DNA of 27,830 bases from a virus. Lineage: Duplodnaviria > Caudoviricetes. The notes beneath the pieces were generated by a model. The model searched no databases, was not told the origin of the DNA, and was given only the letters and a program-made list of their open reading frames with translations. The DNA lies in the IMG/VR virus record IMGVR_UViG_3300039191_000291, positions 1 through 27,830 of that record. One strand, 5' to 3'. Position numbers and translations under genes: made by a program. Positions 1 through 27,830 of this stretch are shown here, piece after piece. Each line of letters starts with the position of its first letter. Position 1 is the stretch's first letter.

Positions 1-130
1 CCGAACACGCCTCGGAGGAACTGGCGGGCCAAGCCCTTGGCGAGATCAGCGAGGGCCGCGCGCATGGCACACACCGCCTGTGAGACGTGTCAGGCCGCCC
101 CCGGTGTGCGTTGACACCTGTTCTTTCAGA

Positions 131-180
131 AGGCCGGAAGAGACCGGCAGAGGCCGGATGAAGGCGGATGAGGCCGCAAA
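131..180. repeat. Five degenerate 10-bp tandem repeats near the putative left end
   Basis: aggccggaag / agaccggcag / aggccggatg / aaggcggatg / aggccgcaaa. Confidence 0.6.
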
Positions 181-391
181 AACAGAGGTTTACGAGGGGT
201 GCGGCGGGAGCGGACCGAGGTCGCGTGAAATTGCAGAGATACGCGAAAATCGGCCTGTGCGGCGGGTGTGGTGAGCTTCCGGTGGCGTCACGGGCCTCGT
301 GCGGAGCGATCCGGCTAAGTGCCGTTTAACGCGGCATAAATCGCGCTCAAAAAGGCGTTGAAGTGGGTGTTTTGCGCGCGACCCCGGAGTT

Positions 392-510
392 TGGAACATG
401 GAACCGGGGTTCCAGCTTAGGGGTGGAGTTCCACCTTAGGCATTTTATTAAACAAGACAAGGCGTTAGAGGGGTTTAGCCTTGGGGGCGGGGCGCGCGCA
501 AGATGGAACC
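392..510. repeat. Cluster of TGGAAC/GTTCCA motifs and palindromes (candidate end-region protein-binding sites)
   Basis: TGGAAC at 392, 399, 504 and GTTCCA at 409, 428. Palindromes tggaacc-gg-ggttcca (399-414) and ggtgga-gt-tccacc (422-435). Direct repeat gttcca(g/c)cttagg at 409 and 428. Confidence 0.6.
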
Positions 511-514
511 GATT

Positions 515-1003
515 TCAAGGGCAGATCGATCGAAGAGGAAGCTCATCGTCAGGCCATGAAGCCATCTTGGGTTGGCCTGCGATGTTGGCACCGCCCGCGT
601 CAGCAACGTTCTGGACCGTCACTGAGAACGTGATCTGATCCTCATCCTCAACAATGCCTCGGATGCGAGGGTCGATATGCATCGCGACGCGCCCGGTGGC
701 ATCCTCCCCCGGCAGTAGTGCGCCTCCAAGGGTAATAAAGTCGGTCACCGCCCTGCTCGCCAGCGGCGTGGGGCGGCCTGGGTAGTGCGCTGCTACCTCG
801 ACATGCAACCCGGAGAACGCAATCCCTGACCGGTTGGTAGCGGTGACGTCCGCTCGTATCAGGCGCTCATCAATCGAGTAGAGCGAACCCTCAGAAACCT
901 CAACGGCTTGGCTCAAGCAGTCAAGGATGGGATCAGCTTGGGCCGCTGACGACAAGCTGAGCGCCAGGGTGGCAGTCAAAGAGGTGAGGGTGTTGCGGGT
1001 CAT
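515..1003 (-). CDS. Exported/periplasmic hypothetical protein downstream of the repressor
   Basis: GGAGG RBS before ATG 1003. Sec-type signal peptide MTRNTLTSLTATLALSLSSAAQA. One Cys near each end of the mature chain. Confidence 0.75.
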   Translation of the reverse strand: MTRNTLTSLTATLALSLSSAAQADPILDCLSQAVEVSEGSLYSIDERLIRADVTATNRSGIAFSGLHVEVAAHYPGRPTPLASRAVTDFITLGGALLPGEDATGRVAMHIDPRIRGIVEDEDQITFSVTVQNVADAGGANIAGQPKMASWPDDELPLRSICP

Positions 1004-1030
1004 GATGCCTCCATTTTCGCCTAGGTACAT

Positions 1031-1705
1031 CTAATCCAACCAAGTGTGAGCGGACCACACAACCTCCCCAAGAAGCTGCAGGCTATCCATGTCGGGGCCT
1101 TCGCGCAACTCGGTCTCGTGATCAGGGTTATCGGAAAGCAGAAGGATCATGCGCCCCGGTATCGCCTCGAGGCGTTTGACACGAGCCTCGCCATCCCGGT
1201 CGACGAAGGCGTAGATGCGCCGGTTTCTAACCTGCTTTCGACGCACGTCGATCATCACGAGATCGGTGTCGTATAGAGTTGGCCGCATGCTGTCCCCGCG
1301 AACGGATAGGATGTAGGCGGAGGTAGGAGATATGCCGCTGCGCGCCAACCAGTCACGCCGGAAGGCGAGGGTCGATGTTGGTTCACCCTCGTCGTTAAAC
1401 GCCCCGCCGCCGGCGGCGAGTTGCGCATCGTATCGCGGGATCGAGGCGAACTCCTCACCATCTATCTCGGTCGTGTAGATGCGACCATCTTCGCGCGGCG
1501 GGCCGATATAGAAGTCCAGGCCCAACGCATCGCAAATCTGCCTGGCACGGTTCAGAGGGGTCCCAGCCTTCTTTGCGCCCCTCAGGACATTCCGGATAGC
1601 GTCCGGCGGCAAATTATATTCCTTTTCAACGGCATACGCCCGCTTGCCGAGCTGCTGTAAGCGCTCGGAGACGATATCCGCAAAGGCTTTTTCGGCGCGC
1701 TCCAT
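1031..1705 (-). CDS. CI-like phage repressor (HTH + S24 peptidase domain)
   Basis: N-terminal HTH-like region, LAAGGG cleavage-type motif, VRGDSMRP (catalytic Ser), RVKRL (catalytic Lys), C-terminal LLGEVVW. Divergent from the early operon. Confidence 0.92.
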   Translation of the reverse strand: MERAEKAFADIVSERLQQLGKRAYAVEKEYNLPPDAIRNVLRGAKKAGTPLNRARQICDALGLDFYIGPPREDGRIYTTEIDGEEFASIPRYDAQLAAGGGAFNDEGEPTSTLAFRRDWLARSGISPTSAYILSVRGDSMRPTLYDTDLVMIDVRRKQVRNRRIYAFVDRDGEARVKRLEAIPGRMILLLSDNPDHETELREGPDMDSLQLLGEVVWSAHTWLD

Positions 1706-1708
1706 GAT

Positions 1709-1783
1709 TCGGGGAATTTACCGAACTTAGCTCGTCTTGACTATCGGTAAATCTACCGGCATAAATATCGGTAAGGTTACGGA
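1709..1783. promoter_or_regulatory. Lysis/lysogeny switch: three 16-bp operators plus early promoter
   Basis: tcggggaatttaccga (1709-1724), tcggtaaatctaccgg (1744-1759), tcggtaaggttacgga (1768-1783); consensus TCGGTAA-nn-TTACCGA. TTGACT -35 at 1737-1742 with cataaat 17 nt downstream. Confidence 0.8.
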
Positions 1784-1795
1784 TTGAGGCGAGCC

Positions 1796-2041
1796 ATGAA
1801 CAAAACAATGCTGATCAGGCTTGGCGAGGCATATGGGCAGCACTGCGGACTGAAGCTATCCACCGTCTCGACCTACGCGGCCGGCGACGGGAAGTTTTTA
1901 GGCAGCCTGAAGGGCGCTGCTGGATGCACGATCCGTCGCGCAGATCGCGTCCTGAACTGGTTCGACGATCACTGGCCCTGCGATCTCGAATGGCCCGCCG
2001 ACATTCCGCGCCCCTCCGGCAAGTCGGAGGACGCCGCATGA
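1796..2041 (+). CDS. Cro/Ner-like small DNA-binding protein
   Basis: First early gene, divergent from the repressor, 81 aa. LSTVSTYAAGDGKF...TIRRADRVLNWF..WP..LEWPADIPRP resembles alphaproteobacterial phage Cro-like proteins. Confidence 0.8.
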   Translation: MNKTMLIRLGEAYGQHCGLKLSTVSTYAAGDGKFLGSLKGAAGCTIRRADRVLNWFDDHWPCDLEWPADIPRPSGKSEDAA

Positions 2042-2073
2042 TCCACCCCACCCCAACCCGCAAGGAGACCTTC

Positions 2074-3231
2074 ATGCAGATGAATGACGCAATGGAGACC
2101 CGGTTATACCTGGTCAATCGCGCCCTCGACGCCGGGCTGCAGCCAGCCGAGGCGCTGGGGCAGGCCCGCGCGCTGTGGGATTTCGTGCAGGGGCCATATG
2201 GCGCCGATGGCGCGATCGAGGCGGTGGATTACCGCGGCGCCATCGGCGCGGACGGCGGTGTCGTCGGCATTGCCCTGCACGAGAATGGCGCCTGGCGGCG
2301 CGTGGATGCGGCGGGTCGCACGCTTCATCATGAGCGGACGTATTTCGACACGCATCCGGTCTGGGCGGGCATCCGCGACGTGCCGACACATGTGGATGTG
2401 GCCACCGTGGAAATCCCGTGCTTCTGGGTGCGCAGCGAGCGGCGCGGCGACGAGCGGCTCTGGCTGGTCTCGCCCTGCGCGCGCCCCGGCTACCGCCTGC
2501 ACCCGGCCTTCCTGCGCCCCGACGGCACCGCCTGTTCGGTGCTGCGCGTCGGCAAGTATCCGGCTTCGGAGCGCGAGGGTCGCATCGCCGGAGAGGCGGG
2601 CAACAAGCCCTGGACCGGAGTGACCATCGATGACGCGCGCGAGCGCTGCGCGGCGCTGGGTCAGGGCTGGCGGCTCTATTCGATCTACGACCTGGCGGCG
2701 ATCCAGCTCTTGATGCTGATCGAGACCGGCGATCCGGATATGCAGGGCGCGCTGGGGCGCGGCAATGCCGACGGCGGAGGGGTCAAGCCCACCGGCGAGA
2801 CATCGGCCGTCTGGCGCGGCATCCATGATCTGTGGGGCAATGTCTGGCAGTTCATCGACGGGCTGCAGCTGGCCGAGGATGGCGAGATCGTGCTTTGGAG
2901 CGCCGACATGCCGGGTGGTGACGACTGGGTCGCGACCGGCGCGCGCTACGGCCCCGGCGAGAAGGATGGCTACCCGGTCGACTTCCACGACGAGCGCGGC
3001 TCCGGCTTCGACCTGTCGCCGCTCTTTCTGCCCTCGGAGGTCGAGACGGACAAGGAGGCCGCGGTCATCCCCGATCGGGTCTGGGGGCACTGGTCGGGGC
3101 GCGCCACCGTCGCCCTGAGTGGGGGCAGCTGGCTCCGCGGCTCGAATGCCGGCGTGTTCGCCCTCGCCCTGCTCTCCCCGCGCTCGGACGCGGGTTCGAG
3201 CATCGGGTTTCGGCCCGCTTTCGCACTCTGA
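2074..3231 (+). CDS. FGE-sulfatase/C-type-lectin-fold (Mtd-like) protein; putative DGR target
   Basis: AAGGAG RBS before ATG 2074 (alternative ATG 2038). Motifs VEIPCFW, HPAF, VGKY, GIHDLWGNVWQFIDG and C-terminal GGSW...AGVF...RS...IGFRPAF. Confidence 0.85.
   Translation: MQMNDAMETRLYLVNRALDAGLQPAEALGQARALWDFVQGPYGADGAIEAVDYRGAIGADGGVVGIALHENGAWRRVDAAGRTLHHERTYFDTHPVWAGIRDVPTHVDVATVEIPCFWVRSERRGDERLWLVSPCARPGYRLHPAFLRPDGTACSVLRVGKYPASEREGRIAGEAGNKPWTGVTIDDARERCAALGQGWRLYSIYDLAAIQLLMLIETGDPDMQGALGRGNADGGGVKPTGETSAVWRGIHDLWGNVWQFIDGLQLAEDGEIVLWSADMPGGDDWVATGARYGPGEKDGYPVDFHDERGSGFDLSPLFLPSEVETDKEAAVIPDRVWGHWSGRATVALSGGSWLRGSNAGVFALALLSPRSDAGSSIGFRPAFAL
3109..3231 (+). other. Putative DGR variable repeat (VR)
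   Basis: Encodes VALSGGSWLRGSNAGVFALALLSPRSDAGSSIGFRPAFAL. Putative variable codons are all NNC/NNT. Only 7 adenines in 3121-3228. The 5' boundary is approximate. Confidence 0.7.
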
Positions 3232-3248
3232 AATCCGCACCCCTGCGC

Positions 3249-3268
3249 CCTGCCGGTCCGCCGGCAGG
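3249..3268. other. GC-rich hairpin/cruciform just downstream of the VR
   Basis: cctgccgg-tccg-ccggcagg: perfect 8-bp stem, 4-nt loop, no U-tract. Confidence 0.7.
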
Positions 3269-3312
3269 CGGGCCGATCACCGCCAACGAAACGCCAACCC
3301 GGAGGAAATCAA

Positions 3313-3534
3313 ATGACCCACCCCAAACGCGGACTGCCCGGGGCGCTGGACGCGCCCGACGTGGCCCAGGACATCGCGCGCATACCGCAGGCCGACCGCG
3401 TCAAGCTGGCGATCCTGCTGGTGCGCGATGTGGAGGACGGGCGCTGCATCGGCCCGCTGAGCCGGCTGGCCGAGGAAGCCACGGCCGCCAGCGGCCGCAT
3501 CCTGCGCCGCCAATTCGAACAGGAGTGCGGATGA
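3313..3534 (+). CDS. Small hypothetical early protein
   Basis: GGAGG RBS, 73 aa, GC-rich codon usage. Confidence 0.75.
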   Translation: MTHPKRGLPGALDAPDVAQDIARIPQADRVKLAILLVRDVEDGRCIGPLSRLAEEATAASGRILRRQFEQECG

Positions 3535-3824
3535 TGGAGAGCGGTTTCTTTGATCTCGAGAGCGCGAAAGCCCACGCGAAAGCCAGGGCACGTTGGGTTG
3601 CTCGGGAGCGAGCGGCCGCGCGGGCCGCTCGCGCTACCCGGCATTCATTCTCTGCCGACAAAATCGACCACGCGGCGCTTGAGGTCAGCTGCCGCGTCGG
3701 CCTGCTCGTCACTAACGGAATTGCCGGCGGTGAGCAGTGCGTCACGGTATCTGTCGAGGCTCGTCAGCATCCGCTCACCCAGCCCATCGAGGTCAGTGTC
3801 GATGTGCAGAATGAGGGTCGCTAG
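3531..3824 (+). CDS. Possible hypothetical protein overlapping an antisense gene
   Basis: ATG overlaps the previous stop (ATGA), but the 3' part is antisense to 3645-3890. Confidence 0.35.
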   Translation: MMESGFFDLESAKAHAKARARWVARERAAARAARATRHSFSADKIDHAALEVSCRVGLLVTNGIAGGEQCVTVSVEARQHPLTQPIEVSVDVQNEGR

Positions 3825-3890
3825 CATGTCTTCGAGGACCTCAACACGCCGCTCCAAAGGTGCGGAGCCCAAGTTCTCCAGTTCGTCCAT
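3645..3890 (-). CDS. Antisense-oriented small acidic helical protein (moron-like)
   Basis: GGAGG RBS before ATG 3890; MDELENLGSAPLERRVEVLEDMLATL..., 81 aa; lower GC; TACCAT -10-like element upstream on the minus strand. Confidence 0.7.
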   Translation of the reverse strand: MDELENLGSAPLERRVEVLEDMLATLILHIDTDLDGLGERMLTSLDRYRDALLTAGNSVSDEQADAAADLKRRVVDFVGRE

Positions 3891-4098
3891 GAGTTTCCTC
3901 CATCTGGTTGTTGGCGCTTCCGATGGTAGGGAACGCCCCGGCCGCACGCCACCACTCACGGAGCCCCGCGGCCGGGGCGGCTTTATCCGGCGCCTGATCC
4001 GGTATCTCGACAACAGCCTGCTGGGCGATGCGCTCGGCGCGGTGGCGCTGTTCGCCCTGCTTTTCGCGGCGCTCTGGTTGCCGGAGGTGCTGCGATGA
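3889..4098 (+). CDS. Small membrane protein (start uncertain)
   Basis: C-terminal hydrophobic helix LLGDALGAVALFALLFAALWLP; stop overlaps the next ATG (ATGA). Confidence 0.5.
   Translation: MSFLHLVVGASDGRERPGRTPPLTEPRGRGGFIRRLIRYLDNSLLGDALGAVALFALLFAALWLPEVLR
3934..3979. other. 12-bp perfect inverted repeat (stem-loop)
   Basis: cgccccggccgc (3934-3945) / gcggccggggcg (3968-3979), 22-nt loop, followed by gcttt. Confidence 0.6.
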
Positions 4099-4343
4099 TC
4101 TTCGAGATACGCAAGCACGGCTTCGGCTGGGCTGTCTTCGAGGGCGGCAAGCCCGTGACGCCGGAGGTGTCGACCCGGCACCTGGCGGAGACCAAGCGCG
4201 ACCGGCTGGTGGCCGAGCGCCAGCGCCGCCCGCGCGACTGCCTGCGCTGCGGCGCGGAGTTCCTGTCGACCGGGCCGGGCCACCGCATGTGCAACCACTG
4301 CCGCCAGGTCGCGGGCGGGGTCGACCCGCAGATGGTGCCGTGA
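4095..4343 (+). CDS. Small zinc-ribbon protein
   Basis: CLRC...MCNHC (two CxxC motifs); coupled start/stop overlaps. Confidence 0.8.
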   Translation: MIFEIRKHGFGWAVFEGGKPVTPEVSTRHLAETKRDRLVAERQRRPRDCLRCGAEFLSTGPGHRMCNHCRQVAGGVDPQMVP

Positions 4344-4573
4344 TGCACGCCGCGCCGCTCACCTCCCCGCGCCTGCAGCGCGTGCTGGCCGTCCTGAAGG
4401 ACGGGCGCCCGCACACGACGCGCCAGATCGTGCGGTCGGCCGGGGTGTGCGCGGTGAACAGCTGCATCGCCGAGCTGCGCCAGCACGGCGCGGAGATCAC
4501 CTGCACGCGCGAGCGGCGCAAGGACCGGCTGATCTGCCGATACACGATGACGAAAGGACCGAGGGATGCGTGA
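4343..4573 (+). CDS. Small winged-helix DNA-binding protein
   Basis: TGATG coupling; RLQRVLAVLKDGRPHTTRQI...VNSCIAELRQHGAEI. Confidence 0.75.
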   Translation: MHAAPLTSPRLQRVLAVLKDGRPHTTRQIVRSAGVCAVNSCIAELRQHGAEITCTRERRKDRLICRYTMTKGPRDA

Positions 4574-5393
4574 CGCCAAACTGATCGACCTGCCTGTAGA
4601 TGAGATCGACACGAGCCGCGTGCGCGTGACGCCTCTGCATGAAAAGGCGGTGGAGATCATCAAGGCGTCGGTTGAAGAGGTCGGCGCGATCCGGGACCCG
4701 ATCCACGTCAGGAAGGCCAGGGATGGGTACCAGCTGATCGACGGCCGGCACCGCCTGGAAGTCGCGCGCCAGCTCGGACACGAGACGATCTCGGCCAAGG
4801 TTTGGGAATGCACCCTCGATCAGGCGCGGCTGATGGAGGCCGACGCGAACGTGTCCTTTACGCACATGCAGCCGCTCGATCTGGCGGTGAGCCTGGCGGC
4901 GCGCAAGGACATATACGAGACCTTGCACCCGGAGACTGCACGCGGCACGGCGGGCGCGCTCGCCAAGCACGGCATGCAACGGACAAATTTGTCCTTTGCA
5001 GAATTCGTGGGCGATCTGGTCGGCCTTTCGCCACGTCAAGTCCGGAGAATTGTGTCGGCGGGGGCGGCTCTGACTTCCGATCAGGTGCGGTGGCTTCGCG
5101 CGGCACCCAAGTCGCCAACCATGTCCGACCTTCAGGCTATCTCGAAAATCACGGACGACGCCGAGCGCGCAAAGGTCTGCATCGCGCTCTCGAACGGTGA
5201 GGCCGGGACCGTCAACGCCGCCCGCAAGGCGTATCGCCAGGGCGATGTCGAGCCCGCGCCCAAGGACCCCGTTGAAGAGGGGTTTCAAGGACTGATGAAG
5301 GCATGGACGCGCGCGCCGATGGCGGCGCGGCGCCGGTTTCTCGACCACATGTCCGAGGACATCGAGCAGATGGGGTGGGATCGCGATGAGTGA
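4566..5393 (+). CDS. ParB/Sulfiredoxin-domain protein with HTH
   Basis: PIHVR...YQLIDGRHRLEV ParB box; HTH-like FVGDLVGLSPRQVRRIV. Confidence 0.88.
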   Translation: MRDAKLIDLPVDEIDTSRVRVTPLHEKAVEIIKASVEEVGAIRDPIHVRKARDGYQLIDGRHRLEVARQLGHETISAKVWECTLDQARLMEADANVSFTHMQPLDLAVSLAARKDIYETLHPETARGTAGALAKHGMQRTNLSFAEFVGDLVGLSPRQVRRIVSAGAALTSDQVRWLRAAPKSPTMSDLQAISKITDDAERAKVCIALSNGEAGTVNAARKAYRQGDVEPAPKDPVEEGFQGLMKAWTRAPMAARRRFLDHMSEDIEQMGWDRDE

Positions 5394-7530
5394 GCGCCGC
5401 CCGGATCGCGAATGGTGGACCGCCGCCGAGCTGGCGGAGGCCGCGCTGCCGGACCTTCCGGCCACATGTCGAGGCGTTGACAAGACCGCCAAGCGGCAGG
5501 GCTGGCGGCAGGCGCCGGGCGCGGCGCGACGGCGCAAAAGCCGCGGCGGCGGGTGGGAGTATCACTGGACGCTGCTGCCGAGCCGCGCGCAGCAGGCGCT
5601 GCTGGCGCAGGCCGCGCCACCCCCCGTCACCCCCGCGCCGGTGGACCGCGAGGCGCTCTGGGCGCGCTTCGACCGGCTGGCGGAGCACACGAAGCGCAAG
5701 GCGTACCGCGCCCTGGAGGCGGTGCAGACCGTCGAGGCGCTGGAGCGCGGCGGGATGACGCGCGATCTGGCCTGCCACCAGGTGGCGCGCCAGTTCGATT
5801 GCAGCGCGCGCACGGTCTGGAACTGGCTGGGCCGGGTCGAGGGGGTGCGCAGCGACGATCGCCTGCCCCATCTGGCGCCCCGCCACGGCACCGCCGTGCG
5901 CGGCGAGACATCGGCCGATTGCAGCCCCGAGTTCTGGGAGGTGCTCAAGGCCGATTACCTGCGGCTCGAGCAGCCGAGTTTCTCGGCCTGCTATCGCCGC
6001 GCGGTGCGCATCGCCAAATCCGAAGGCTGGACCACGCTGCCCGAGCGCACGATGCGCCGCCGGCTGGAGGCGGAGGTTCCCGAAACCACGATCCTGCTCT
6101 GCCGCCAGGGCGTCGAGGCACTCAAGCGGCTCTACCCGTCGCAGATCAGGGACCGCACCGCGCTGCACGCGATGGAGGCGGTCAACGCCGACTACCACCG
6201 CTTCGACGTGTTCGTGCGCTGGCCGCGCTACGAGGGCGACAATGAGTGCGAGATCATCCGACCCCAGCTGGTCGCGTTCCAGGACATCTATTCGGGGCGC
6301 ATCGTGAGCTGGCGTGTCGACCGGACGCCGAACAAGGTGGGCGTGAGCCTCGCGCTGGGCGACATGATAGAGCGCTTCGGTATCCCCGAGCACATCCTTC
6401 TCGATAACGGCCGCGAGTTCGCCAACAAGTTCCTCACCGGGCAGGTGCCGACGCGCTACCGCTTCAAGGTCAAGGACGACGACATTCCCGGCATCCTCAA
6501 GACGCTGGGATGCGAGGTCCACTGGGCCATGCCCTATAGCGGGCAGTCCAAGCCGATCGAACGCGCCTTCCGCGATTTCTGCGACGACATCTCCAAGGAT
6601 CCGCGCCTGGCCGGCGCCTATACCGGCAACCGGCCCGACGCGAAGCCGGAGAACTACGGCAATCGCGCGATCTCGCTGGAGGACTTCCTCGCGGTGCTGG
6701 CCGAGGGCATCGAGGAGCACAACGCGCGCCCCGGCCGCCGCGGTCAGACCACGCAGGGGCGGAGCCTGCTGGAGACCTTCGAGGACAGCTACGCGACCGC
6801 GCCGATCCGCAAGGCGACCGAGGAGCAGCGCCGGCTCTGGTTGATGGGGGCCGAGGGTCTGCACGCGAACAGCCGCAACGGCGAGATCAAGCTCATGGAG
6901 AACAAGTACTGGGCGCCCTGGATGCACCAGATCGCCGGGCGCCGCGTGGTCGCGCGGTTCGACCCCGCCGACCTGCATGCCGGGCTGCATCTCTATGGGC
7001 TCGACAGCGCCTATATCGGCCACGCCGAGTGCATAGAGAAGGGGGGCTTTTTCAGCCTGGAGGATGCGCGCAACCACGCCGCCGCCAAGCGCCACTTCGT
7101 CAAGAAGGAGCGCGCCGCCGCCGATGCGCTGCAGCGGATGCGCGCCGCGGAGGTTGGCGGCTACCTGGATGCCGCCCGGCCGACCGGCGAGACGCCGGCC
7201 GCCGAGGCGCAGGTCGTTCGCCCGACCTTCAACAGCAAGCCCAAGGCGGCGGCCGTCTACACGCCGCGCGAGCGCAGCCCCGAGGAGGATGCCGCGCACC
7301 AGGCCGTAGTGGCGGATTTCGAGGCGAAGCGGCGGCAGGCCGAGGCGACCCGCCCGCGCGCCGAGACCGAGCGGTCGCGCTTCCGGGCGGCGATCGAGCT
7401 GGAAGCGCGCCTGGGGCGCGGAGAGGAGATCGGAGAGGAGCAGGCCGCGTGGCTGCGAAGCTACCAGTCGACGGCCGAGTACATCGCGCAGCGCGATGTG
7501 CTGAGGAAGCATCCCGACATGCTGGGGTGA
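5386..7530 (+). CDS. MuA-like DDE transposase
   Basis: Mu-type N-terminal HTH (WWTAAELA...GGGWEYH); catalytic motifs VNADYHRFD, LLDNGREF, KPIERAF; C-terminal RFDPADLH; 714 aa. Confidence 0.95.
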   Translation: MSERRPDREWWTAAELAEAALPDLPATCRGVDKTAKRQGWRQAPGAARRRKSRGGGWEYHWTLLPSRAQQALLAQAAPPPVTPAPVDREALWARFDRLAEHTKRKAYRALEAVQTVEALERGGMTRDLACHQVARQFDCSARTVWNWLGRVEGVRSDDRLPHLAPRHGTAVRGETSADCSPEFWEVLKADYLRLEQPSFSACYRRAVRIAKSEGWTTLPERTMRRRLEAEVPETTILLCRQGVEALKRLYPSQIRDRTALHAMEAVNADYHRFDVFVRWPRYEGDNECEIIRPQLVAFQDIYSGRIVSWRVDRTPNKVGVSLALGDMIERFGIPEHILLDNGREFANKFLTGQVPTRYRFKVKDDDIPGILKTLGCEVHWAMPYSGQSKPIERAFRDFCDDISKDPRLAGAYTGNRPDAKPENYGNRAISLEDFLAVLAEGIEEHNARPGRRGQTTQGRSLLETFEDSYATAPIRKATEEQRRLWLMGAEGLHANSRNGEIKLMENKYWAPWMHQIAGRRVVARFDPADLHAGLHLYGLDSAYIGHAECIEKGGFFSLEDARNHAAAKRHFVKKERAAADALQRMRAAEVGGYLDAARPTGETPAAEAQVVRPTFNSKPKAAAVYTPRERSPEEDAAHQAVVADFEAKRRQAEATRPRAETERSRFRAAIELEARLGRGEEIGEEQAAWLRSYQSTAEYIAQRDVLRKHPDMLG

Positions 7531-7591
7531 AAGGTGGCGCGGCGGGCCAGCCCGCCCGACCGCGCCGGTGCTTAACACAAGCGAGGTGAAG

Positions 7592-8335
7592 ATGGCAGAG
7601 ACAAGAGCTTTATACAATACACTGGCGCCGATGCGGAACGTGACCGCGTTCCTGACGCTCGTGCGCCGACTGGAAAACCGCGGCCACGGGCTGCCCGGCA
7701 TGGGCTGCTTCTACGGCCCGTCGGGGCTGGGGAAGACGACCGCCAGCGTCTACGTCGCCAACGAGGAGCAGGCATGCGTCGTCCAGGTCAAGTCGGTCTG
7801 GACCCAGAAGAAGCTCTGCCAGGCGATCCTCGCCGAGCTGGGCGTGCATCCCGCGAAGGTGATCGGCGACATGGTCGACCAGATCGCCGAGGTGCTGGCG
7901 CGCGAGGGCGTGCCGCTCCTGATCGACGAGGCCGACTTCCTGGTCAAGAAGGGCATGATCGAGATCGTGCGCGACATCTACGAGAGCTCCTTCGTGCCGG
8001 TCATCCTGATCGGCGAGGAGCTCCTGCCGCAGAAGCTGCGCAAGTGGGAGCGGGTGCACGGCCGCATCCTGAGCTGGGTCGCGGCCGAGCCCGCGGACGA
8101 TGACGACTTCGACCTGCTGCGCCGCATCCGCTGCCCCGAGGTCGAGATCGACGCGCCCCTGCTGGCCAAGATGCGCACCGCCTCGGGCGGCTCGGCGCGG
8201 CGGATCGTGGAGAACCTCGAGCTCGCCCGCGAGATCGCCGCCACCCGCAACCTCGACCGCCTGACGCTCGAGGACTGGGGGCGGCGCGACTTCTTCACCG
8301 GCATCACGCCCGACGCACGGAGGATTTCGGCATGA
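7592..8335 (+). CDS. MuB-like AAA+ ATPase (transposition protein B)
   Basis: Walker A GPSGLGKT, Walker B LLIDEAD; follows the transposase; GAGGTG RBS before ATG 7592. Confidence 0.93.
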   Translation: MAETRALYNTLAPMRNVTAFLTLVRRLENRGHGLPGMGCFYGPSGLGKTTASVYVANEEQACVVQVKSVWTQKKLCQAILAELGVHPAKVIGDMVDQIAEVLAREGVPLLIDEADFLVKKGMIEIVRDIYESSFVPVILIGEELLPQKLRKWERVHGRILSWVAAEPADDDDFDLLRRIRCPEVEIDAPLLAKMRTASGGSARRIVENLELAREIAATRNLDRLTLEDWGRRDFFTGITPDARRISA

Positions 8336-8697
8336 CGCAAGACCGGAACCCGAAGGACACTGCCGTGCGGGGGGTGCGCCGGGTCCGCGCCGCCACGCCC
8401 CAGGGCAACATGTGGCGCGCCATTCGCGGGCTGGGGGCCTTCACCTACCGCGACGTGGCGATGCACGCCAACACAAGCAGCGTGCCGGTCTCGGAAGGGG
8501 CTGCGCGCGACTACTGCCGGATGCTCGCCAATGCCGGCTATCTGCGGGTCGAGCGCAAGGCGCAGCCCAAGGGTCGGCTGGCCGTCTACCGCCTGGTGCG
8601 CGACACCGGCCCGCGCCCGCCGCGCGAGAAGCGGGTGCGCGCCGTCTGGGACGACAACCGCGGCGAGTACGCCTACATCGCCGGAGGTGTCGCATGA
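8332..8697 (+). CDS. Winged-helix-like Mu-like phage protein
   Basis: MWRAIR..FTYRDVA..AARDYCRMLANAGYL..YRLVRDTGP; typical position after MuB. Confidence 0.8.
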   Translation: MTQDRNPKDTAVRGVRRVRAATPQGNMWRAIRGLGAFTYRDVAMHANTSSVPVSEGAARDYCRMLANAGYLRVERKAQPKGRLAVYRLVRDTGPRPPREKRVRAVWDDNRGEYAYIAGGVA

Positions 8698-9083
8698 ACC
8701 AGGTGACACCGATCGAGCGCGCCCGCGCGGCCTATGGCGGCGATATTCCCGACTGGGTCGAGGGGTTGGCGCGCGCCTGCGCGGAGACCAGCCAGAACCG
8801 CGTGGCCAAGCGCATGGGCGTTTCCGCGGCGCTGATCTCGAACGTGATCGCGGGCAAGTACCCGGGCGATATGGCGCGGGTCGAGGACCTCTATCGCGGC
8901 GCGTTCGAGGCGCAGACCGTCGATTGCCCGGCCATGGGCATGATGCCGCTGGACGAGTGCCGGCACTGGCGCGCGAAGTCGCGCAAGCTGTCCAATGCCA
9001 ACACCCGCAACGTGACCATGTTCCGGGCCTGCAACCGCTGCCCGATCAACAAGGGAGGCGGCGATGGCGGCACCGATGGCTGA
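8694..9083 (+). CDS. HTH transcriptional regulator with Cys-rich C-terminus
   Basis: SQNRVAKRMGVSAALISNV HTH; CP..C..CNRCP; GGAGG RBS and ATGA overlap. Confidence 0.8.
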   Translation: MNQVTPIERARAAYGGDIPDWVEGLARACAETSQNRVAKRMGVSAALISNVIAGKYPGDMARVEDLYRGAFEAQTVDCPAMGMMPLDECRHWRAKSRKLSNANTRNVTMFRACNRCPINKGGGDGGTDG

Positions 9084-9414
9084 ACGCGACGAGATCATCG
9101 CGCTGGCGCGGCAGGGCAATCCCCCGCGCGAGATCGCGGCCCGCATGGGGCTGGATGCGAACACCGTGTCCTGCCTGCTGAGCTACGAGCGGCGCAAGGG
9201 TGCCGACATCCCGCACGCCCCGCCCGGGTCCGGACGCATCGGGCGGACCCGCTTCGTGATCTGCGACCCGCCCGCCGGGCTGCGCGAGGCGCTCGCCCCG
9301 CATGCGGCCGCGCGCGGCATGTCGATCTCCGAGCTCAGCGGCGCGCTGCTGCTCGCGATCACCCGCGACGACCTGGTCGACGCGGTTCTCGACGATGGAG
9401 GCGCCGATGCCTGA
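9064..9414 (+). CDS. HTH-containing hypothetical protein
   Basis: PREIAARMGLDANTVSCLL; GGAGG RBS. Confidence 0.75.
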   Translation: MAAPMAERDEIIALARQGNPPREIAARMGLDANTVSCLLSYERRKGADIPHAPPGSGRIGRTRFVICDPPAGLREALAPHAAARGMSISELSGALLLAITRDDLVDAVLDDGGADA

Positions 9415-9631
9415 GCGGTTCACCGAAGGCGAGATGCTGCGCCTGGCGGCGAAGGCGGTCCACAAGATCGACCTGCTCGGCGCGCGCGGCACCACGCTCT
9501 GCACGATGGAGGAGATCGACGCGATGGCCTGCCTGCTGGTGCTCTCCGGCGCGCTGGCCTCGTCCGAGGAGCTTCACAAGGGGGCGATCGCCGCCCCTTC
9601 AACCCCCTCTTCAACAGGAGACGATCAATGA
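9407..9631 (+). CDS. Small hypothetical protein
   Basis: GGAGG RBS; overlaps its neighbours in operon fashion. Confidence 0.7.
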   Translation: MPERFTEGEMLRLAAKAVHKIDLLGARGTTLCTMEEIDAMACLLVLSGALASSEELHKGAIAAPSTPSSTGDDQ

Positions 9632-10278
9632 CGGAACATGAGCCAGCCCCGATCCAGTCGGGCAGGATCGAGATGGACGGCAAGACCTACATGCGCGACG
9701 CCAAGGGCGCGCTCGTGCCGGTCGAGGTCGTCAAGGCGCAGGATCAGCTGCAGGACGAGACGGTGCGCAAGATCGTCGGCTATGCCAAGGCGCTGAGCGC
9801 GCAGATGCAGCGCTTCAAGGCGCATGTCTTCGAGGATGTGGGCGATCTGGAGGCACTGCTCGCCCAGGAATACGAGCTCACGCTGGGCGGCGCGAAGGGC
9901 AACAAGACGCTGATGTCCTATGATGGCTGCTTCAAGGTGCAGATCGCGGTGGCCGACCGGGTGGATTTCGGGCCGGAGCTGCAGATCGCCAAGACGCTGA
10001 TCGATGAGTGCCTCAACGAGTGGGCGGCCGACGCCCGCCCGGAAATCCGCGCGATCGTCACCCGCGCCTTCAACACCGACAAGGAAGGCCAGATCAACCG
10101 CTCGGAAATCTTCATGCTCCTGCGCCTGGAGATCGAGGACGCCCGCTGGCAGCGCGCCATGTCGGCGATCCGCGACGCGATGCGGGTGGTCGGCTCGAAG
10201 ACCTATGTGCGCTGCTACATGCGCGATCACGCCGAGGCGGCGTGGGAGCCGGTCGTGCTCGACCTGGCGAGGGTGTGA
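9628..10278 (+). CDS. DUF3164-family Mu-like phage protein
   Basis: YMRDAKGALVP, GGAKGNKTLMSYDG, FGPELQIAKTLIDECL, GSKTYVRCY. Confidence 0.88.
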   Translation: MTEHEPAPIQSGRIEMDGKTYMRDAKGALVPVEVVKAQDQLQDETVRKIVGYAKALSAQMQRFKAHVFEDVGDLEALLAQEYELTLGGAKGNKTLMSYDGCFKVQIAVADRVDFGPELQIAKTLIDECLNEWAADARPEIRAIVTRAFNTDKEGQINRSEIFMLLRLEIEDARWQRAMSAIRDAMRVVGSKTYVRCYMRDHAEAAWEPVVLDLARV

Positions 10279-10307
10279 GCCGTGAACACAAACAGGGAGG
10301 ACTGACC

Positions 10308-10451
10308 ATGAAGGCCGACAAGATGGACGAATACTGGCGCATCCAGTGGGGTATCGCGGTGGCGAACGACCGCGGCGACGTGGGCCGCGAGCTCGAACTG
10401 CTGGCCCGGCAGGAACAGCTTCGCGTCGAACTGGGCATGGGCGGGGCATGA
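10308..10451 (+). CDS. Small hypothetical protein (47 aa)
   Basis: GGGAGG RBS; fills the gap before gemA. Confidence 0.65.
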   Translation: MKADKMDEYWRIQWGIAVANDRGDVGRELELLARQEQLRVELGMGGA

Positions 10452-10452
10452 C

Positions 10453-10908
10453 ATGGGCGCGCGCGACCTTCAGAAGCTGATCCATGTCGGGTGCCGCGAG
10501 CTGGGCCTCGATGCCGATGCCCGCCGCGACCTCCAGCAGGCCGCGACGGGCAAGGCGAGCATGCGCGACATGACCGAGGCCGACCTGCGGCTGGTGGTGG
10601 ATCGCCTCAAGGCGTCGGGGTTCGACCCCGGCTCGGGACGTGTCCGCCATCCGCGCGCGCCGCGCGCCGACCTGCGCCTGGTGCATGTGCTCTGGCGGAT
10701 GCTGGGCGATGCGGGCGAGCTCAAGCAGCCCGGCCGCGCCGGGCTCAACGCCTTCATCCGTCGCCGCTTCGGCGATGCCTGGGGATCGGTGCCGGCCGAT
10801 ATCGACATGCTGCGCGACTGGGAAAAGATCGACACGGTCATCCAGGCGCTGCTGGACTGGTGCGAGCGCGCCGGCATCGAGGTGGACGAGCAGGAGCGCG
10901 GCCGATGA
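10453..10908 (+). CDS. gemA: GemA/gp16-like regulatory protein (DUF1018)
   Basis: LIHVGCRELGLD...TGKASMRDMT..DL..VVDRLKASGF. Confidence 0.85.
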   Translation: MGARDLQKLIHVGCRELGLDADARRDLQQAATGKASMRDMTEADLRLVVDRLKASGFDPGSGRVRHPRAPRADLRLVHVLWRMLGDAGELKQPGRAGLNAFIRRRFGDAWGSVPADIDMLRDWEKIDTVIQALLDWCERAGIEVDEQERGR

Positions 10909-11165
10909 AAAAGCCGGTCGCCGAGGTCTCCGATCACGCGCTGCTGCGCTACCTGGAGCGCGTCCTGCGCATCGACGTCGAGGCGCATCGCTGCGAGGTC
11001 GGACGCAAGGTCGATCGCGCCATGGTGCATCCCGGCGCCTGCGGTGTGCGCGTCGGCGGCTTCACCTACAAGCTGCGCGGCCAGGTGGTCACCACGGTCG
11101 TGCCCAGCCACAAGCCCAGCCACCGGACGCCGCGCCGCCGGCCCAAGGGGGCGGGCGATGGGTGA
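10905..11165 (+). CDS. Small hypothetical phage protein
   Basis: VSDHALLRYLERV...VVTTV; ATGA overlap. Confidence 0.75.
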   Translation: MKKPVAEVSDHALLRYLERVLRIDVEAHRCEVGRKVDRAMVHPGACGVRVGGFTYKLRGQVVTTVVPSHKPSHRTPRRRPKGAGDG

Positions 11166-11538
11166 CTTCCTGCCTGCCGTCGCCGCCGAGATCGCCGAGG
11201 TGATCGGCGAGGCTGCCGCCCTGCGTCTCCTGGAGGCGCGGGGCGGTACGCAGATCTCGATCCCCGTGCGCGCGGAAGGGTCCATGCTGGCCCGCCTCGT
11301 GGGCGAGACGGAGGCGCAGGCGATGATCGACACCTTCGGCCCCGGCAAGCTGACGCTGCCCACGGCGGGCGCGCGTGGCGTGGGGGCGCGCCGGGCGCGC
11401 GCCATGCGCATGCTGCGCAAGGGGCATTCACTCCAGGAGGTCGCGCTGGCCTGCGATCTGCACATCCGCACCGTGTCCAACTACCGCGCCCAGATCGATC
11501 GCGACAACGGTCAGATGGAACTGCCCTTTGACAGCTGA
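11158..11538 (+). CDS. Mor/C-like transcription activator
   Basis: EIAEVIGEAAALRLLEARGGTQISIP plus C-terminal HTH (SLQEVALACDLHIRTV); last gene before the lysis module. Confidence 0.82.
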   Translation: MGDFLPAVAAEIAEVIGEAAALRLLEARGGTQISIPVRAEGSMLARLVGETEAQAMIDTFGPGKLTLPTAGARGVGARRARAMRMLRKGHSLQEVALACDLHIRTVSNYRAQIDRDNGQMELPFDS

Positions 11539-11545
11539 GCCGCGA

Positions 11546-11640
11546 CCTGCAACCTTGCAGGGCAGCGCCGGGCCGGCTGACCGCCCCTCCCCCTGAATAC
11601 TTTCGAGACTGAATTGCCGTGCCGCCGCATGCCAGTGTCG
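11546..11640 (+). promoter_or_regulatory. Putative activator-dependent late promoter (lysis/packaging operon)
   Basis: Dyad cctgcaa-cc-ttgcagg (11546-11561); 22-mer ccctgaatactttcgagactga (11591-11612), 18/22 identical to 19405-19426. Confidence 0.65.
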
Positions 11641-11663
11641 GGTTGTAAAACCCGGAGGCGCGC

Positions 11664-12521
11664 ATGCAGCTCAAGAATGGCCGGGTCGAGGGCGTTTCCT
11701 TCCAGGAGGCGCGCTGGACCGGAGGGCAGATCACACCCACCGTCGTGGTGCTTCACGACACCGCCAGCCGCCTGACGCCGGGCGCGGCGGCCAGCTACCT
11801 GGCCGACAACGCGCGCAAGGTGTCGGTGCATTTCGTGGTGGAGCGCGACGGCCGGATCACCCAGCAGGTGCCCGTCGGCGTGCGCGCCAACCACGCGGGC
11901 CGCTCGCACTACCACGGCCGCGATCACGTCAACGCCTTCTCGGTCGGTATCGAGATCGTCAATCCCGGCCGCATGGAGGCCGCGCCCGGCCACCTTGCGC
12001 GGGCCTGGTATGGCGAGGAGTTCGACATCGCCACCTACCGCATCCGGGAGATGCGCACCGAGGCGCACGGCCACGGGTTCTGGATGGCCTATCCCGAAGA
12101 GCAGATCGAGGCCGTCCTGCATCTGCTGGAGGCGCTCTTTGATGGCTGCGACACGCTCGAGGATATCGTCACCCACTGGTACGTATCGCCCGGCCGCAAG
12201 GTCGACACCAACCCGCTCTTCCCGCTGAGCCACGTTCGCGCGCGCATCCTCGGCCGCGAGGAGCCCGCCGAGTGGCAGGCCGATGCCGCTGCGGATGAGA
12301 TCGACGGCGACGAGCTGATGCAGGTCGACACCCGCGGCGGCCCGCTCAACATGCGCCGCTGGCCGAGCTTCAACCCCAACATCATCGACCGCATACCCGA
12401 CGGCACGCTGGTGCCCGTCATCAAGGCGGGCAGCTTTTCCGGGCGCCGCTGGGTGAAGGTGGCCTTCGGCGGCGCCGAGGGCTGGGTCGTGGAGACCTAT
12501 CTCAAGGAGCCGCCGGAATGA
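11664..12521 (+). CDS. Endolysin: N-acetylmuramoyl-L-alanine amidase (Amidase_2) + SH3-like domain
   Basis: VVLHDTA, SVHFVV, ANHAG, SVGIEIVN, THWYVSPGRKVD; C-terminal LNMRRWP...WVKV..EGWV. Confidence 0.92.
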   Translation: MQLKNGRVEGVSFQEARWTGGQITPTVVVLHDTASRLTPGAAASYLADNARKVSVHFVVERDGRITQQVPVGVRANHAGRSHYHGRDHVNAFSVGIEIVNPGRMEAAPGHLARAWYGEEFDIATYRIREMRTEAHGHGFWMAYPEEQIEAVLHLLEALFDGCDTLEDIVTHWYVSPGRKVDTNPLFPLSHVRARILGREEPAEWQADAAADEIDGDELMQVDTRGGPLNMRRWPSFNPNIIDRIPDGTLVPVIKAGSFSGRRWVKVAFGGAEGWVVETYLKEPPE

Positions 12522-12772
12522 GCGAGACCGCCCCCGAACTTCCCGCCTGGCATGCGCGCAGCTTCTACGCCCAGGTCCTGCTGATCGTCACCGTGCTCGC
12601 CCAGGCGGCGGGCATCGACCTTGCCGGCTGGATCGAACGGCTCGGATTTACCGGCGAGCGCCAGCTGCTCGACTTTGTCGTCGCGGTGATGCCGGCGCTC
12701 TTCGGGCTCTGGGCCTGGCTGGAGCGCCGCGCGCCGCGCTTCCGGCTGGTGTTCCGGAGGGTGCTGACATGA
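12518..12772 (+). CDS. Putative holin
   Basis: 84 aa with two hydrophobic segments and a basic C-terminus, directly after the endolysin. Confidence 0.65.
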   Translation: MSETAPELPAWHARSFYAQVLLIVTVLAQAAGIDLAGWIERLGFTGERQLLDFVVAVMPALFGLWAWLERRAPRFRLVFRRVLT

Positions 12773-13011
12773 CCGGCCTCGTTGAAATCCTGCTGGCCAT
12801 CGGTGCCGGGGTGGCGGCGCTCTTCGCGCTGATCGCCCGATCGCGCCGCAAGGGGCGCCGCGAGACCGAGCAGAAGATCGAGGCGCAGGCGGCGGAAGAC
12901 TACCAGGAGACACGCGAAAGGATCGACGATGCGAAAAGCCGCACTGATGGTGCTGATGATGATCGCAGCTGGCTGCAGCAATACGGAGACGGCGATACGC
13001 CCAAGCGGTGA
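12769..13011 (+). CDS. Putative inner-membrane spanin (Rz-like)
   Basis: Single N-terminal TM helix followed by a charged helical region. Confidence 0.6.
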   Translation: MTGLVEILLAIGAGVAALFALIARSRRKGRRETEQKIEAQAAEDYQETRERIDDAKSRTDGADDDRSWLQQYGDGDTPKR

Positions 13012-13147
13012 GGCCATCTGCTCGGCGCTGGACCCGCTGGCCCGCGCCCATGCACGGGCGCTTGCGGCCTCCGAGGACGCGGCGGCGGTCGAGACCGGCG
13101 CCCGGCTCCTGCGTGGTTTTGCGGCCGGCTGCGAGGCGCCGGCATGA
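12929..13147 (+). CDS. Putative outer-membrane lipoprotein spanin (Rz1-like)
   Basis: MRKAALMVLMMIAAGC lipobox; overlaps the preceding gene in a different frame. Confidence 0.65.
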   Translation: MRKAALMVLMMIAAGCSNTETAIRPSGEAICSALDPLARAHARALAASEDAAAVETGARLLRGFAAGCEAPA

Positions 13148-13497
13148 CGGCGGAGCTGATCGATACCGGTTTGAAGCTCGCGAGCTTCGCGCTGTCGATC
13201 GCCGCGATCGCTTTTGCCTACGTGCGCACGCGCCGCAAGGATGTCGACGGCCGGCTGCACGAGGGCTCGAAGCGGATGGACAGCCAGGAGGCGCGCATCG
13301 CGCGGCTCGAGCATACCGTCCACGACATGCCGGGGCGCGACGAGACACACCGGCTCGAGCTGCGGCTCACGGAGATGGCCGGGTCGATGAACGCCATGTC
13401 GGCGTCGATGAGTGGACAGAATGAAATCCTCGCCCGGCTCGAGCGGGTCGTGACGCGGCACGAGGATCACCTTCTCGAGGGGGGCAGAAACAGATGA
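13144..13497 (+). CDS. DUF2730-like membrane-anchored coiled-coil protein
   Basis: N-terminal TM helix; RIARLEHTVHDMPGRDETHRLEL; Mu gp25-like position. Confidence 0.75.
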   Translation: MTAELIDTGLKLASFALSIAAIAFAYVRTRRKDVDGRLHEGSKRMDSQEARIARLEHTVHDMPGRDETHRLELRLTEMAGSMNAMSASMSGQNEILARLERVVTRHEDHLLEGGRNR

Positions 13498-13793
13498 GCA
13501 GTTATTCCGAAACCCTGCGGCGCCACCGCCGCCTATCCATCCTGCGGCACCTGGAGCAGTGCGCGGAGTACACCTCGAACGCGGCGATCCTGGCGGATGT
13601 CCTGGCCGGGCTCGGCGTCACATCGACCCGCGCCCAGGTGATCACCGAGCTCGCCTGGCTGCGCGAGAACGGCTTCGTCGATTACGATGACCGCGCCGAC
13701 TTCCTGGTGGTCACCGCGACCGGCGACGGCGTGGAGATCGCGCGCGGCGCGTCGAGCCATCCCGACATCCAGCGCCCTCGCCCAAGGAGCTGA
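13494..13793 (+). CDS. Mu gp26-like winged-helix protein
   Basis: RRLSILRHL...QVITELAWLRENGFV...GVEIARG..HPDIQRP. Confidence 0.8.
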   Translation: MSSYSETLRRHRRLSILRHLEQCAEYTSNAAILADVLAGLGVTSTRAQVITELAWLRENGFVDYDDRADFLVVTATGDGVEIARGASSHPDIQRPRPRS

Positions 13794-13796
13794 CCC

Positions 13797-14333
13797 ATGC
13801 CGCAGCCCCGCAAGATCGACCTGCTGCCGTCGGAGCTGCGCGGGTGGCTCCAGGAGGAGCTGCGCGCGCGCGGGTTCGCCGGCTACGAGGATCTGGCCGA
13901 GGCGCTGAATTTCCGCCTCGAAGAGGCCGGGCTCGAGCTGCGCGTCGGCAAGTCCGCGCTGCACGCCTACGGCCAGGAGTTCCGCGACTACGCGCGGATG
14001 CAGGATCAGGCGCAGGAGGAAATCCGCACCTTCCTGGAGGAGGCCAGCCTCAAGGAGGAGGTCGACGTGACCTCGGCGCTCTTCCAGCAGCTCACCACGA
14101 TCCAGTGGCGGTTGCAGATGATGCTGTCGGACCCGGACGCGATGCCCGACCCGCGGGGCATGAAGGACCTGACCACGGCGCTCAACAACCTGATCCGCTC
14201 CACCTCGCTGCGCGACGGCATCCTGAGGGCCGAACGCGAGGCGCAGTCGGCGCGGCTCGACGAGGCGGTGGCCGACGGGGCGATCGACGAGGCGGCGGCG
14301 ACCAAGGCGCGCGAAATCATGGGTTTCGGCTGA
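13797..14333 (+). CDS. DUF3486 / Mu gp27-like protein (putative terminase small subunit)
   Basis: RKIDLLPSELRGWL..GKSALHAYG; upstream of the large terminase. Confidence 0.85.
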   Translation: MPQPRKIDLLPSELRGWLQEELRARGFAGYEDLAEALNFRLEEAGLELRVGKSALHAYGQEFRDYARMQDQAQEEIRTFLEEASLKEEVDVTSALFQQLTTIQWRLQMMLSDPDAMPDPRGMKDLTTALNNLIRSTSLRDGILRAEREAQSARLDEAVADGAIDEAAATKAREIMGFG

Positions 14334-14349
14334 CAGGAGGGAATGCGGC

Positions 14350-16812: not shown

Positions 16813-16820
16813 GAGAGACC

Positions 16821-19452: not shown

Positions 19453-19457
19453 GCCGC

Positions 19458-20426: not shown

Positions 20427-20429
20427 CCG

Positions 20430-26891: not shown

Positions 26892-27809
26892 ATGGCGAAC
26901 CTATCCGAAAACGCCTCATGGCCGAGCGGCATCTACCAGATCGAAACCACCGACCCCGTGGTCGGCGGCCCGGACGGGATTTCGAACGTCCAGGCCAAGC
27001 AGCTGGCCAACCGCACCGCCTGGCTCAAGCAGAAGGCCGACGAGCTGGTCGAGGCGCGCGGCGACGAGGCGACCCTGGGCGACCGGCTCGACCTGCTCCA
27101 GGCGCTCTCGCCCGAGCACCAGGTGGCCATCATCGGCGCCGCGCAGGAGGCGCTCGGCCTGGCCGGCGTGCTGTCGCGCGAGATCGACGTGATCCGCAAC
27201 CGGGTGCTCGCCCAGGGCGAGGTGGTGCTCAAGAACAAGCACGTCATCTCGGGGATGGTGCTGAGCAAATCGGGGATCCGCGCGCTCGACCTGTCGCAGA
27301 GCGGCACCGTGGGCAGCGGCGCGTCGCGCGCCTGGATCGACGGGCTGACCATCACGCTGGCCGACGAGGCGAACCATGTCTCGGTGCCGACCAACGAGAC
27401 CGACGAGGCGGTGAGCTACTACGCCTTCCTGCATGACGGCCCCGGCGGCTACGGCGTCGGCGTGGCCCAGGAGGTGCCCGATGACGGGCTGGTGCTCTAC
27501 CGGCTCGACCTGCCCGCGAACGACACGGCCGGCGACCTGTCGGCGGTCACCCTGACCGATCTGCGCGTCGTGCGCCCGCAAAGCGGATGGTGGGTCGACG
27601 CAGCGCCCTTCGTCTCGGTGGCGTTCGCCGAGGCCCTGCCCGCGGCCGATTACGGCGTCGCGCTGGAGGTCGAGGGCGCGACCAACCTCGCCGGGGTCGG
27701 CGCGCTGACCTCCTACGACAAGGCGCGCAACGGCTTCAAGATCAAGGCCAGCGGCTCGGCCGACAACATCCGCATCCGCTGGACCCTTCTCAACCCCCGC
27801 TACCAGTGA
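26892..27809 (+). CDS. Tail fibre-related protein
   Basis: N-terminus MANLSENASWPSGIYQIETTDPVVGGPDGISNVQAKQLANRTAWLK resembles myophage fibre N-termini; GAGGA RBS. Confidence 0.75.
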   Translation: MANLSENASWPSGIYQIETTDPVVGGPDGISNVQAKQLANRTAWLKQKADELVEARGDEATLGDRLDLLQALSPEHQVAIIGAAQEALGLAGVLSREIDVIRNRVLAQGEVVLKNKHVISGMVLSKSGIRALDLSQSGTVGSGASRAWIDGLTITLADEANHVSVPTNETDEAVSYYAFLHDGPGGYGVGVAQEVPDDGLVLYRLDLPANDTAGDLSAVTLTDLRVVRPQSGWWVDAAPFVSVAFAEALPAADYGVALEVEGATNLAGVGALTSYDKARNGFKIKASGSADNIRIRWTLLNPRYQ

Positions 27810-27816
27810 GGCTTAA

Positions 27817-27830
27817 ATGGACGTTCAACA
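27817..27830 (+). CDS. Start of the next tail-region gene (truncated by the window edge)
   Basis: GAGG followed by ATG GAC GTT CAA. Confidence 0.4.

Follow-up and report, generated by a model that had tools for sequence, protein, structure and literature searches.

Wu et al. 2018 (PMC5758913) state that a DGR associated with a phage often has, besides its adjacent target, a second one that is not adjacent but lies within 50 kb. The cases catalogued there include Rhodospirillum centenum SW, with a non-adjacent target at -27.2 kb. Benler et al. 2021 (PMC8008677) describe a distal second DGR target in Quimbyvirus, and Dahlman et al. 2025 (PMC12629997) report four gut prophages with a double VR. 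In the parts of these two papers that deal with them, the distal targets are apparently non-structural and lie near counter-defence genes. The second VR gene of Toutatisvirus is a remote target that was kept without its DGR (Egorov et al., bioRxiv 10.1101/2024.10.15.618418), and small targets have been noted in the Faecalibacterium phages Lelie and CP11 (PMC11792537). TaqVP (PDB 5VF4; Handa et al. 2019, PMC6328139) is the protein diversified by a DGR in a Thermus aquaticus prophage.

The stretch of DNA analysed here, referred to as the window, is 27,830 nucleotides of a Caudoviricetes record (IMG/VR IMGVR_UViG_3300039191_000291). It carries what is almost certainly a further target of this kind, called the early gene below. 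The novelty of such a target was overrated in the original prediction, since distal, apparently non-structural second phage DGR targets had already been published. The two-target layout is already known from other phages, and the early gene adds a Mu-like alphaproteobacterial case. As in the cases of Wu et al., a target-avd-TR-RT cassette is accompanied by one non-adjacent target less than 50 kb away in the same prophage. R. centenum SW is an alphaproteobacterium with the same target spacing as the early gene; its row in that catalogue lists a CLec3-class repeat and carries no gene context, protein family or role. The Quimbyvirus and double-VR systems, as described, also have a single TR together with two targets, a tail protein and a distal CLec protein encoded away from the structural module, and a role in phage-host conflict has been proposed for the distal targets, as it is here. 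However, those are gut phages with targets near methyltransferases, whereas the phages considered here are Mu-like, alphaproteobacterial and from saline and other habitats. Unlike the targets in those accounts, the early protein has a full-length tail-tip-type CLec body and a hairpin N-terminus, and is encoded in the early region. The Toutatisvirus, Lelie and CP11 targets resemble the early gene in being remote second targets (17 kb from the TR) that are retained in phages lacking the DGR, but they are reported with a DUF6273-type domain, in gut Firmicutes hosts and as a core gene, whereas the early gene is optional. TaqVP, Bordetella BPP-1 Mtd and Treponema TvpA share with the early protein the FGE-subtype CLec fold, predicted in its case, and a C-terminal variable region. 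TaqVP and the early protein are 20% identical with a TM of about 0.5; TaqVP adjoins its cassette, whereas the early protein is remote and has an added N-terminal hairpin.

The role of distal second phage DGR targets is a question that has so far been raised mostly for gut phages. In searches of open-licence papers no functional study of such targets was found, and no paper on the early-gene family in Rhodobacteraceae Mu-like phages. The present case offers three natural alleles whose surroundings hardly differ, together with a confident structure model, and relatives in named cultured hosts make function testable. Natural controls also exist, namely prophages that have the cassette and not the gene, prophages that have the gene and in which an RT was looked for and not seen, and one head-less prophage that has the gene and the cassette. 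Should the protein bind a defence factor, DGRs would drive counter-defence in phages in a targeted way, in addition to altering host range.

Setting of the early gene in the prophage

Pfam and PHROG scans of 42 ORFs place a Mu-like prophage in the window, with matches to a repressor, ParB, MuA, MuB, DUF3164, GemA, Mor, lysis, terminase, portal, capsid, baseplate and tail-fibre proteins. The left flank (window 1-104) differs from the flank of a near-identical relative, G002. On the right the window is cut off 21 bp past the tail-fibre gene and the prophage is incomplete. The features discussed below are collected in Table 1.

Table 1. Features of the window that bear on the early gene
Feature	Position	Strand	Basis
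Mu-like prophage left end, starts TG	105..140	+	G002 identity begins at 105
CI-type repressor (Peptidase_S24)	1031..1705	-	Pfam/PHROG scans
Divergent control region	1716..1774		Direct reading of sequence
Cro/Ner-position gene, unnamed phrog_7669	1796..2041	+	Cro-like by position only
Early gene, very probable remote DGR target, 385 aa (P0001)	2074..3231	+	ORF; TR match; G002 comparison
Predicted N-terminal helical hairpin, residues 5-39	2086..2190	+	Structure model; dN/dS; no named family
Predicted FGE-type C-type-lectin body, akin to tail-collar-fibre C-terminal domain	2251..3228	+	PHROG, PDB sequence match, model, Foldseek
Variable repeat	3119..3219	+	Gapless G002 TR match
Constant 3' segment, IMH by analogy	3203..3223	+	TR comparison
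Downstream hairpin region	3249..3274	+	Folding and direct reading; GRNA rule from PMC3240598
Tail-fibre gene and first codons of next gene	26892..27830	+	Pfam/PHROG; G002/G001 comparison

The early gene is the second gene of a rightward unit opposite the repressor. It lies ahead of the transposase and 23.6 kb upstream of the fibre gene, and is not encoded in the tail module. Its location in an early operon, as first proposed, is supported. The span originally given was 2074-3268; the start stands, but the gene stops at 3231, and an inverted repeat beyond it extends to 3268. An alternative start is possible at an in-frame ATG at 2038, which overlaps the stop of the preceding gene, and a relative, P0002, is called from the equivalent ATG. 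The description of that preceding gene as cro-like fits its position opposite an S24-type repressor, but the gene itself matched just an unnamed PHROG. The control region between the divergent genes contains a perfect 9-bp inverted pair (1716-1724 and 1744-1752), an additional half-site at 1766-1774 and a -35-like hexamer at 1737-1742, which may act as operator and promoter. A consensus promoter scan of 1600-4700 returned no sites, and the consensus scan also gave no forward terminator before 4041. The early gene would be co-transcribed early, under the control of the repressor.

Several other features of the window were observed. An N6/N4 DNA methyltransferase gene (14687-16812) lies between terminase and portal, and two neighbouring, partly similar small genes (21365-22158, FluMu_N-like) follow the major capsid gene. 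The gene order in 23183-27830 is unusual, with baseplate and fibre genes ahead of sheath, tube and tape measure; the latter three follow the DGR cassette in G001 and G002, and in other relatives the cassette is at the prophage end. Downstream of the repressor, 515-1030 on the minus strand encodes a product with a hydrophobic signal-like N-terminus that has no family match and was not found in G001. It is a candidate lysogenic-conversion or exclusion protein.

Adenine footprint and the cassette in close relatives

The original prediction of a DGR target relied on a C-terminal motif, codon endings and adenine content. The C-terminal motif that it quoted is at the gene end, the GIHDLWGNVWQF motif is also present in the gene, and the nine codons and the 7 A in 3121-3228 are as described. 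Equally A-poor sequence occurs in 0.5% of 108-nt windows, in 5 regions, one of them within the early gene itself. The ending of all nine codons in C or T has a P of about 0.007 from the gene's own third-position usage, for codons chosen post hoc. Taken alone, these two signals are modest.

The near-identical relative G002 is a prophage in Antarctobacter heliothermus DSM 11445 that is 99.7% identical to the window across 105-10649 and 99.9% identical across 22384-27830. It has a complete DGR consisting of a tail target, which begins 344 bp past the last base of the window, avd, TR and RT. The avd product scores above the cut-offs of NCBIfam DivGenRetAVD and Pfam bAvd, and the RT above that of RVT_1. 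A copy of the repeat differing at adenines and lying beside an RT and avd had been predicted, and the G002 TR is such a copy; the part of the TR that had been written out in advance differs from it by one base. Against this TR, 3119-3219 of the window aligns without gaps and mismatches at 14 of the 20 adenines and at none of the 81 other positions, as read from assembled contigs. The second-best of the 55,460 windows scored over the two strands has 38 non-A mismatches. The 20 TR adenines map to 3127-3202 and fall in 11 variable codons, with a capacity of up to about 6e11 proteins. Comparison of the window with G002 over 10,545 aligned columns gives 33 differing columns. Twelve of the substitutions are in the 101-nt repeat, all at TR adenines, and change 7 residues; the remaining 10.4 kb contains 9 substitutions and one 12-nt indel. 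A third allele, L105, also departs from the TR at adenines only.

G001 is a complete 39.6-kb provirus that is 89-93% identical to most of the window, and right after the point at which the window stops it has a CLec tail gene, avd, template repeat and RT. The early repeat of G001 has 10 A mismatches and no others against its own TR, and the window's repeat has 5 non-A differences from the G001 TR. Each repeat tracks its own TR, and the remote repeat is therefore likely to be rewritten from the resident template. The early repeat varies independently of the tail repeat. Because the 3' end of the early gene differs from the TR of near-identical prophages only at adenines, there is very little doubt that it is a second, distant DGR target, and its description as a DGR-diversified FGE-type CLec protein is borne out by the TR match at adenines and by the predicted fold.

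The signals for homing were also compared. The constant 3' segment is identical to the TR through 3219, and the first non-A departure (IMH*) is at 3220, the same as in the tail target. In phage-type DGR targets the rule given in PMC3240598 calls for a GC-rich stem of 7-10 bp that bears a GRNA loop and lies downstream of the repeat, and in the account given there this hairpin is a signal required for BPP-1 homing. In the window, 3255-3274 can form an 8-bp stem (one T-G pair) whose loop, GGCA, is of the GRNA type; its distance from the stop equals that of the GRNA hairpins in relatives. A perfect 8-bp inverted repeat at 3249-3268 overlaps this hairpin and is preferred by the folding program. In most relatives a clean GRNA hairpin with a GC-rich stem lies about 23 nt past the stop.

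No TR or RT is visible in the window, as had been noted from the start; none was found by family scans, by comparison with relatives or by matching the TR to the 55,460 windows. Diversification in trans, as originally suggested, is not supported, since the near-identical relatives carry the cassette in the same prophage, with the TR about 26.6 kb in window terms from the 3' end of the early gene, and the window stops just short of it. A trans-acting host DGR is unnecessary when relatives carry the cassette in cis. Lake metagenome runs with near-identical pieces of the window also contain pieces of avd, TR and RT; G002 may itself derive from one of these runs, X1, which does not count as independent. 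No piece among those listed bridges the window end by 31 letters on each side, so we infer the window's own cassette from G002, to which the final 5.4 kb is 99.9% identical; the cassette likely lies just past the right end. Contig ends at the first variable adenine (runs X4 and X5) were rejected as evidence of variation, since the repeat itself can cause them.

The G002 prophage (contig C66) is without the 11.7 kb corresponding to window 10650-22383, which includes most of gemA, Mor, lysis, terminase, portal and capsid genes. It retains tail genes, the DGR and both targets and is head-less, possibly as a tailocin-like remnant or through an assembly gap.

Predicted fold, selection and spread

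No Pfam or NCBIfam family matched the early gene, and the Pfam FGE-sulfatase profile was also not matched. The protein matches phrog_5302, a 'tail protein', with an E of 5e-34, and 5VF4 is its sole PDB sequence match at E up to 1. An initial model built on 18 sequences scored poorly (pLDDT 50) and gave way to one based on 124 sequences with a pLDDT of 92.5. In this model a helical hairpin (residues 5-39) is joined by a loose linker (46-58) to a compact body. Foldseek ranked TaqVP first (E 1e-16), followed by Mtd, TvpA and FGE, and the viral fold matches were mostly tail-collar-fibre C-terminal domains. The early protein is thus predicted by modelling to have an FGE-type C-type-lectin fold with a C-terminal variable region. 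Body homologues form 2,126 clusters at E 1e-10, many with long N-terminal extensions. A family search with the hairpin gave one 39-aa match among 259 candidates of 23-79 aa, and there was no convincing match in PDB, PHROGs or the ESM Atlas. Two labels for other N-termini were dropped: 'P-loop-like', which had sub-threshold Pfam matches only, and 'MazG-like' for G019, which had no MazG match in Pfam and no PDB match. The early protein is soluble and acidic with a net charge of -16. The original statement that it has no signal peptide or membrane segment holds, as none was found and the highest 19-residue hydropathy (1.21) is in the core helix.

The body and hairpin are under purifying selection. 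In five of five pairs dN/dS is 0-0.35 for the first 40 codons and 0.15-0.40 for the body. For the last 37 codons it is 2.1, 1.2, 1.3 and 0.66 in the four DGR-bearing pairs (above 1 in three of four), the 0.66 belonging to the pair with G015, and in the G007 pair, where no RT was found, it is 0.28 in the one-time repeat, which is thus also under purifying selection. G007 is a Neomegalonema MAG with two Mu-like prophages (contigs C23 and C5, L118-L121) that have the early gene intact. The more complete of the two has a different fibre and no cassette, and C23 has lost the clean GRNA hairpin.

The early gene led to 23 records, 15 of them with an RT, including all seven virus records that are at least 90% complete. 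Ten non-duplicate records have the gene and an RT in one stretch (G001, G002, G012-G016 and G018-G020); they were found through the early gene and several are close kin. In all ten, the remote and the tail repeat each match the record's own TR, with 6-15 A mismatches and 0-4 others for the early repeat, the 4 non-A mismatches occurring in G015. L114 is an eleventh record with both repeats. Named relatives from cultured strains are in Antarctobacter heliothermus DSM 11445, Pseudoruegeria aquimaris CECT 7680 and Devosia elaeis S37. A scan of viral contigs for the TR pattern gave six contigs of at least 27 kb, of which four have the remote repeat, G026 starts inside one, and G025 has the cassette and no remote repeat. 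Among 401 genomes of the family of G002, the early gene is in G002 only, and G073 has the cassette without it. The gene is therefore common among these DGR phages, yet optional and rare overall.

The early gene is upstream of terminase in all 13 Mu-like records compared. In 12 of these it occupies the accessory early region, ahead of GemA/Mor or of terminase and close to DUF3164, Gam or GapR; the position directly after the cro-position gene is confined to the window's group. Two records without Mu hallmarks, G019 (C1:14194-15405) and L114 (10040-10987), have second DGR targets amid CII- and CI-type regulators, which were apparently recruited separately from tail genes.

In phylogenetic analysis, a FastTree of 65 sequences, which left out three tail targets that were too short, gave the early-target clade a support of 0.973, and in an IQ-TREE of 31 sequences the early targets and the same-type tail targets were separated with a UFBoot of 86. 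A single early-target clade was not retained, as the long-branch outgroup of the IQ-TREE rooted inside the early targets. When the repeat was left out, early targets of the Mu type did not cluster with their own tail targets, and the second target of G019 clusters with tail targets. Mu-type early targets occur alongside two distant RT groups and two repeat types. The separation from their own tail targets, though with two RT groups and repeat types, suggests that the early gene may have been re-coupled to new cassettes; the rooting of the tree is ambiguous.

Proposed mechanism and alternative roles

Adenine-error copying and homing are the established chemistry of BPP-1 and by analogy would apply to the early gene. 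Avd and RT would copy the TR RNA with adenine errors, and the cDNA would replace the variable repeat at two sites that share the constant 3' segment and hairpin, namely the tail receptor-binding gene beside the cassette and the early gene 26.6 kb away. Homing would occur in cis from the tail cassette. Variation in the eleven codons may then reshape the lectin binding face. The body may be derived from a tail-fibre tip domain in which the shaft was replaced by the 35-residue helical hairpin, and this hairpin would likely serve as an oligomerising handle.

The early protein is probably not part of the virion, and a cytoplasmic location is suggested. The variable binder may neutralise a host protein in transposition-replication early in lytic growth, probably a defence factor. 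A counter-defence or host-takeover binder is the role we tentatively favour, at somewhat short of an even chance. It draws on gene context, namely the DUF3164, Gam, GapR and GemA neighbours in Mu-like records. PADLOC gave no match for the anti-defence reading, and two findings count against it: the closest viral folds are tail-fibre tips, and the gene is optional, since G025 and G073 have the cassette without it. It has also been considered that Mu-like proteobacterial phages keep an old antibody-like intracellular lineage, so that one retroelement would randomise both a surface key and an intracellular inhibitor of a host immune sensor. This wider proposal is speculative and on balance doubtful; so is the accompanying picture of a tail-tip lectin domain in the early operon, with exchangeable N-terminal handles and re-wiring to whichever cassette is resident.

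The resemblance of the body to tail-collar-fibre tips could also mean that the DGR target is a virion part, either a second adhesin or a head or tail decoration that is made early and docked via the N-terminal hairpin. According to PMC8144416, the majority of viral DGR targets carry a tail-protein annotation, and second targets of gut phages have been proposed as receptor binders (PMC10743442). However, the gene is always upstream of terminase in the 13 Mu-like records, and the model has no fibre shaft. The short N-termini of early targets fall into at least three unrelated types, and some targets have none at all, which argues against a single conserved virion docking site, and a virion role appears unlikely.

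Somewhat less likely again is a binder in the cytoplasm, or released on lysis, whose effect would be directed at rival phages or mobile elements, or at the tuning of host physiology, and not at host defence. The early-operon context with GemA and GapR, the soluble acidic nature of the protein and the intact copy in the head-less G002 prophage are all consistent with such a binder. However, the position of the gene would imply repression in the lysogen, when exclusion matters most, and there is no export signal. The independent variation of the early and tail repeats also counts against it; the early repeat therefore would not share the tail's receptor.

It is improbable that the early gene is a passenger, that is, a duplicated tail gene hit via retained target signals, with no selected role or serving as a store of repeat variants. 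Its optional occurrence and the clustering of the second target of G019 with tail targets would fit a passenger, but the purifying selection on body and hairpin, the identity of only about 30% to its own tail target, and the intact copies in the two G007 prophages with the low dN/dS of their one-time repeat do not. That there is no active DGR target, only GC-driven codon bias or a frozen relic, would agree with the third-position C favoured by high GC and with a window without an RT, but is largely refuted by three alleles that appear to differ solely at TR adenines while the surrounding sequence is almost unchanged.

A further variation was seen in G016 (C1:41114-42129, L065), where the DGR RT aligns in two frames, through a frameshift or an assembly error; both repeats of this record still match the TR at adenines.
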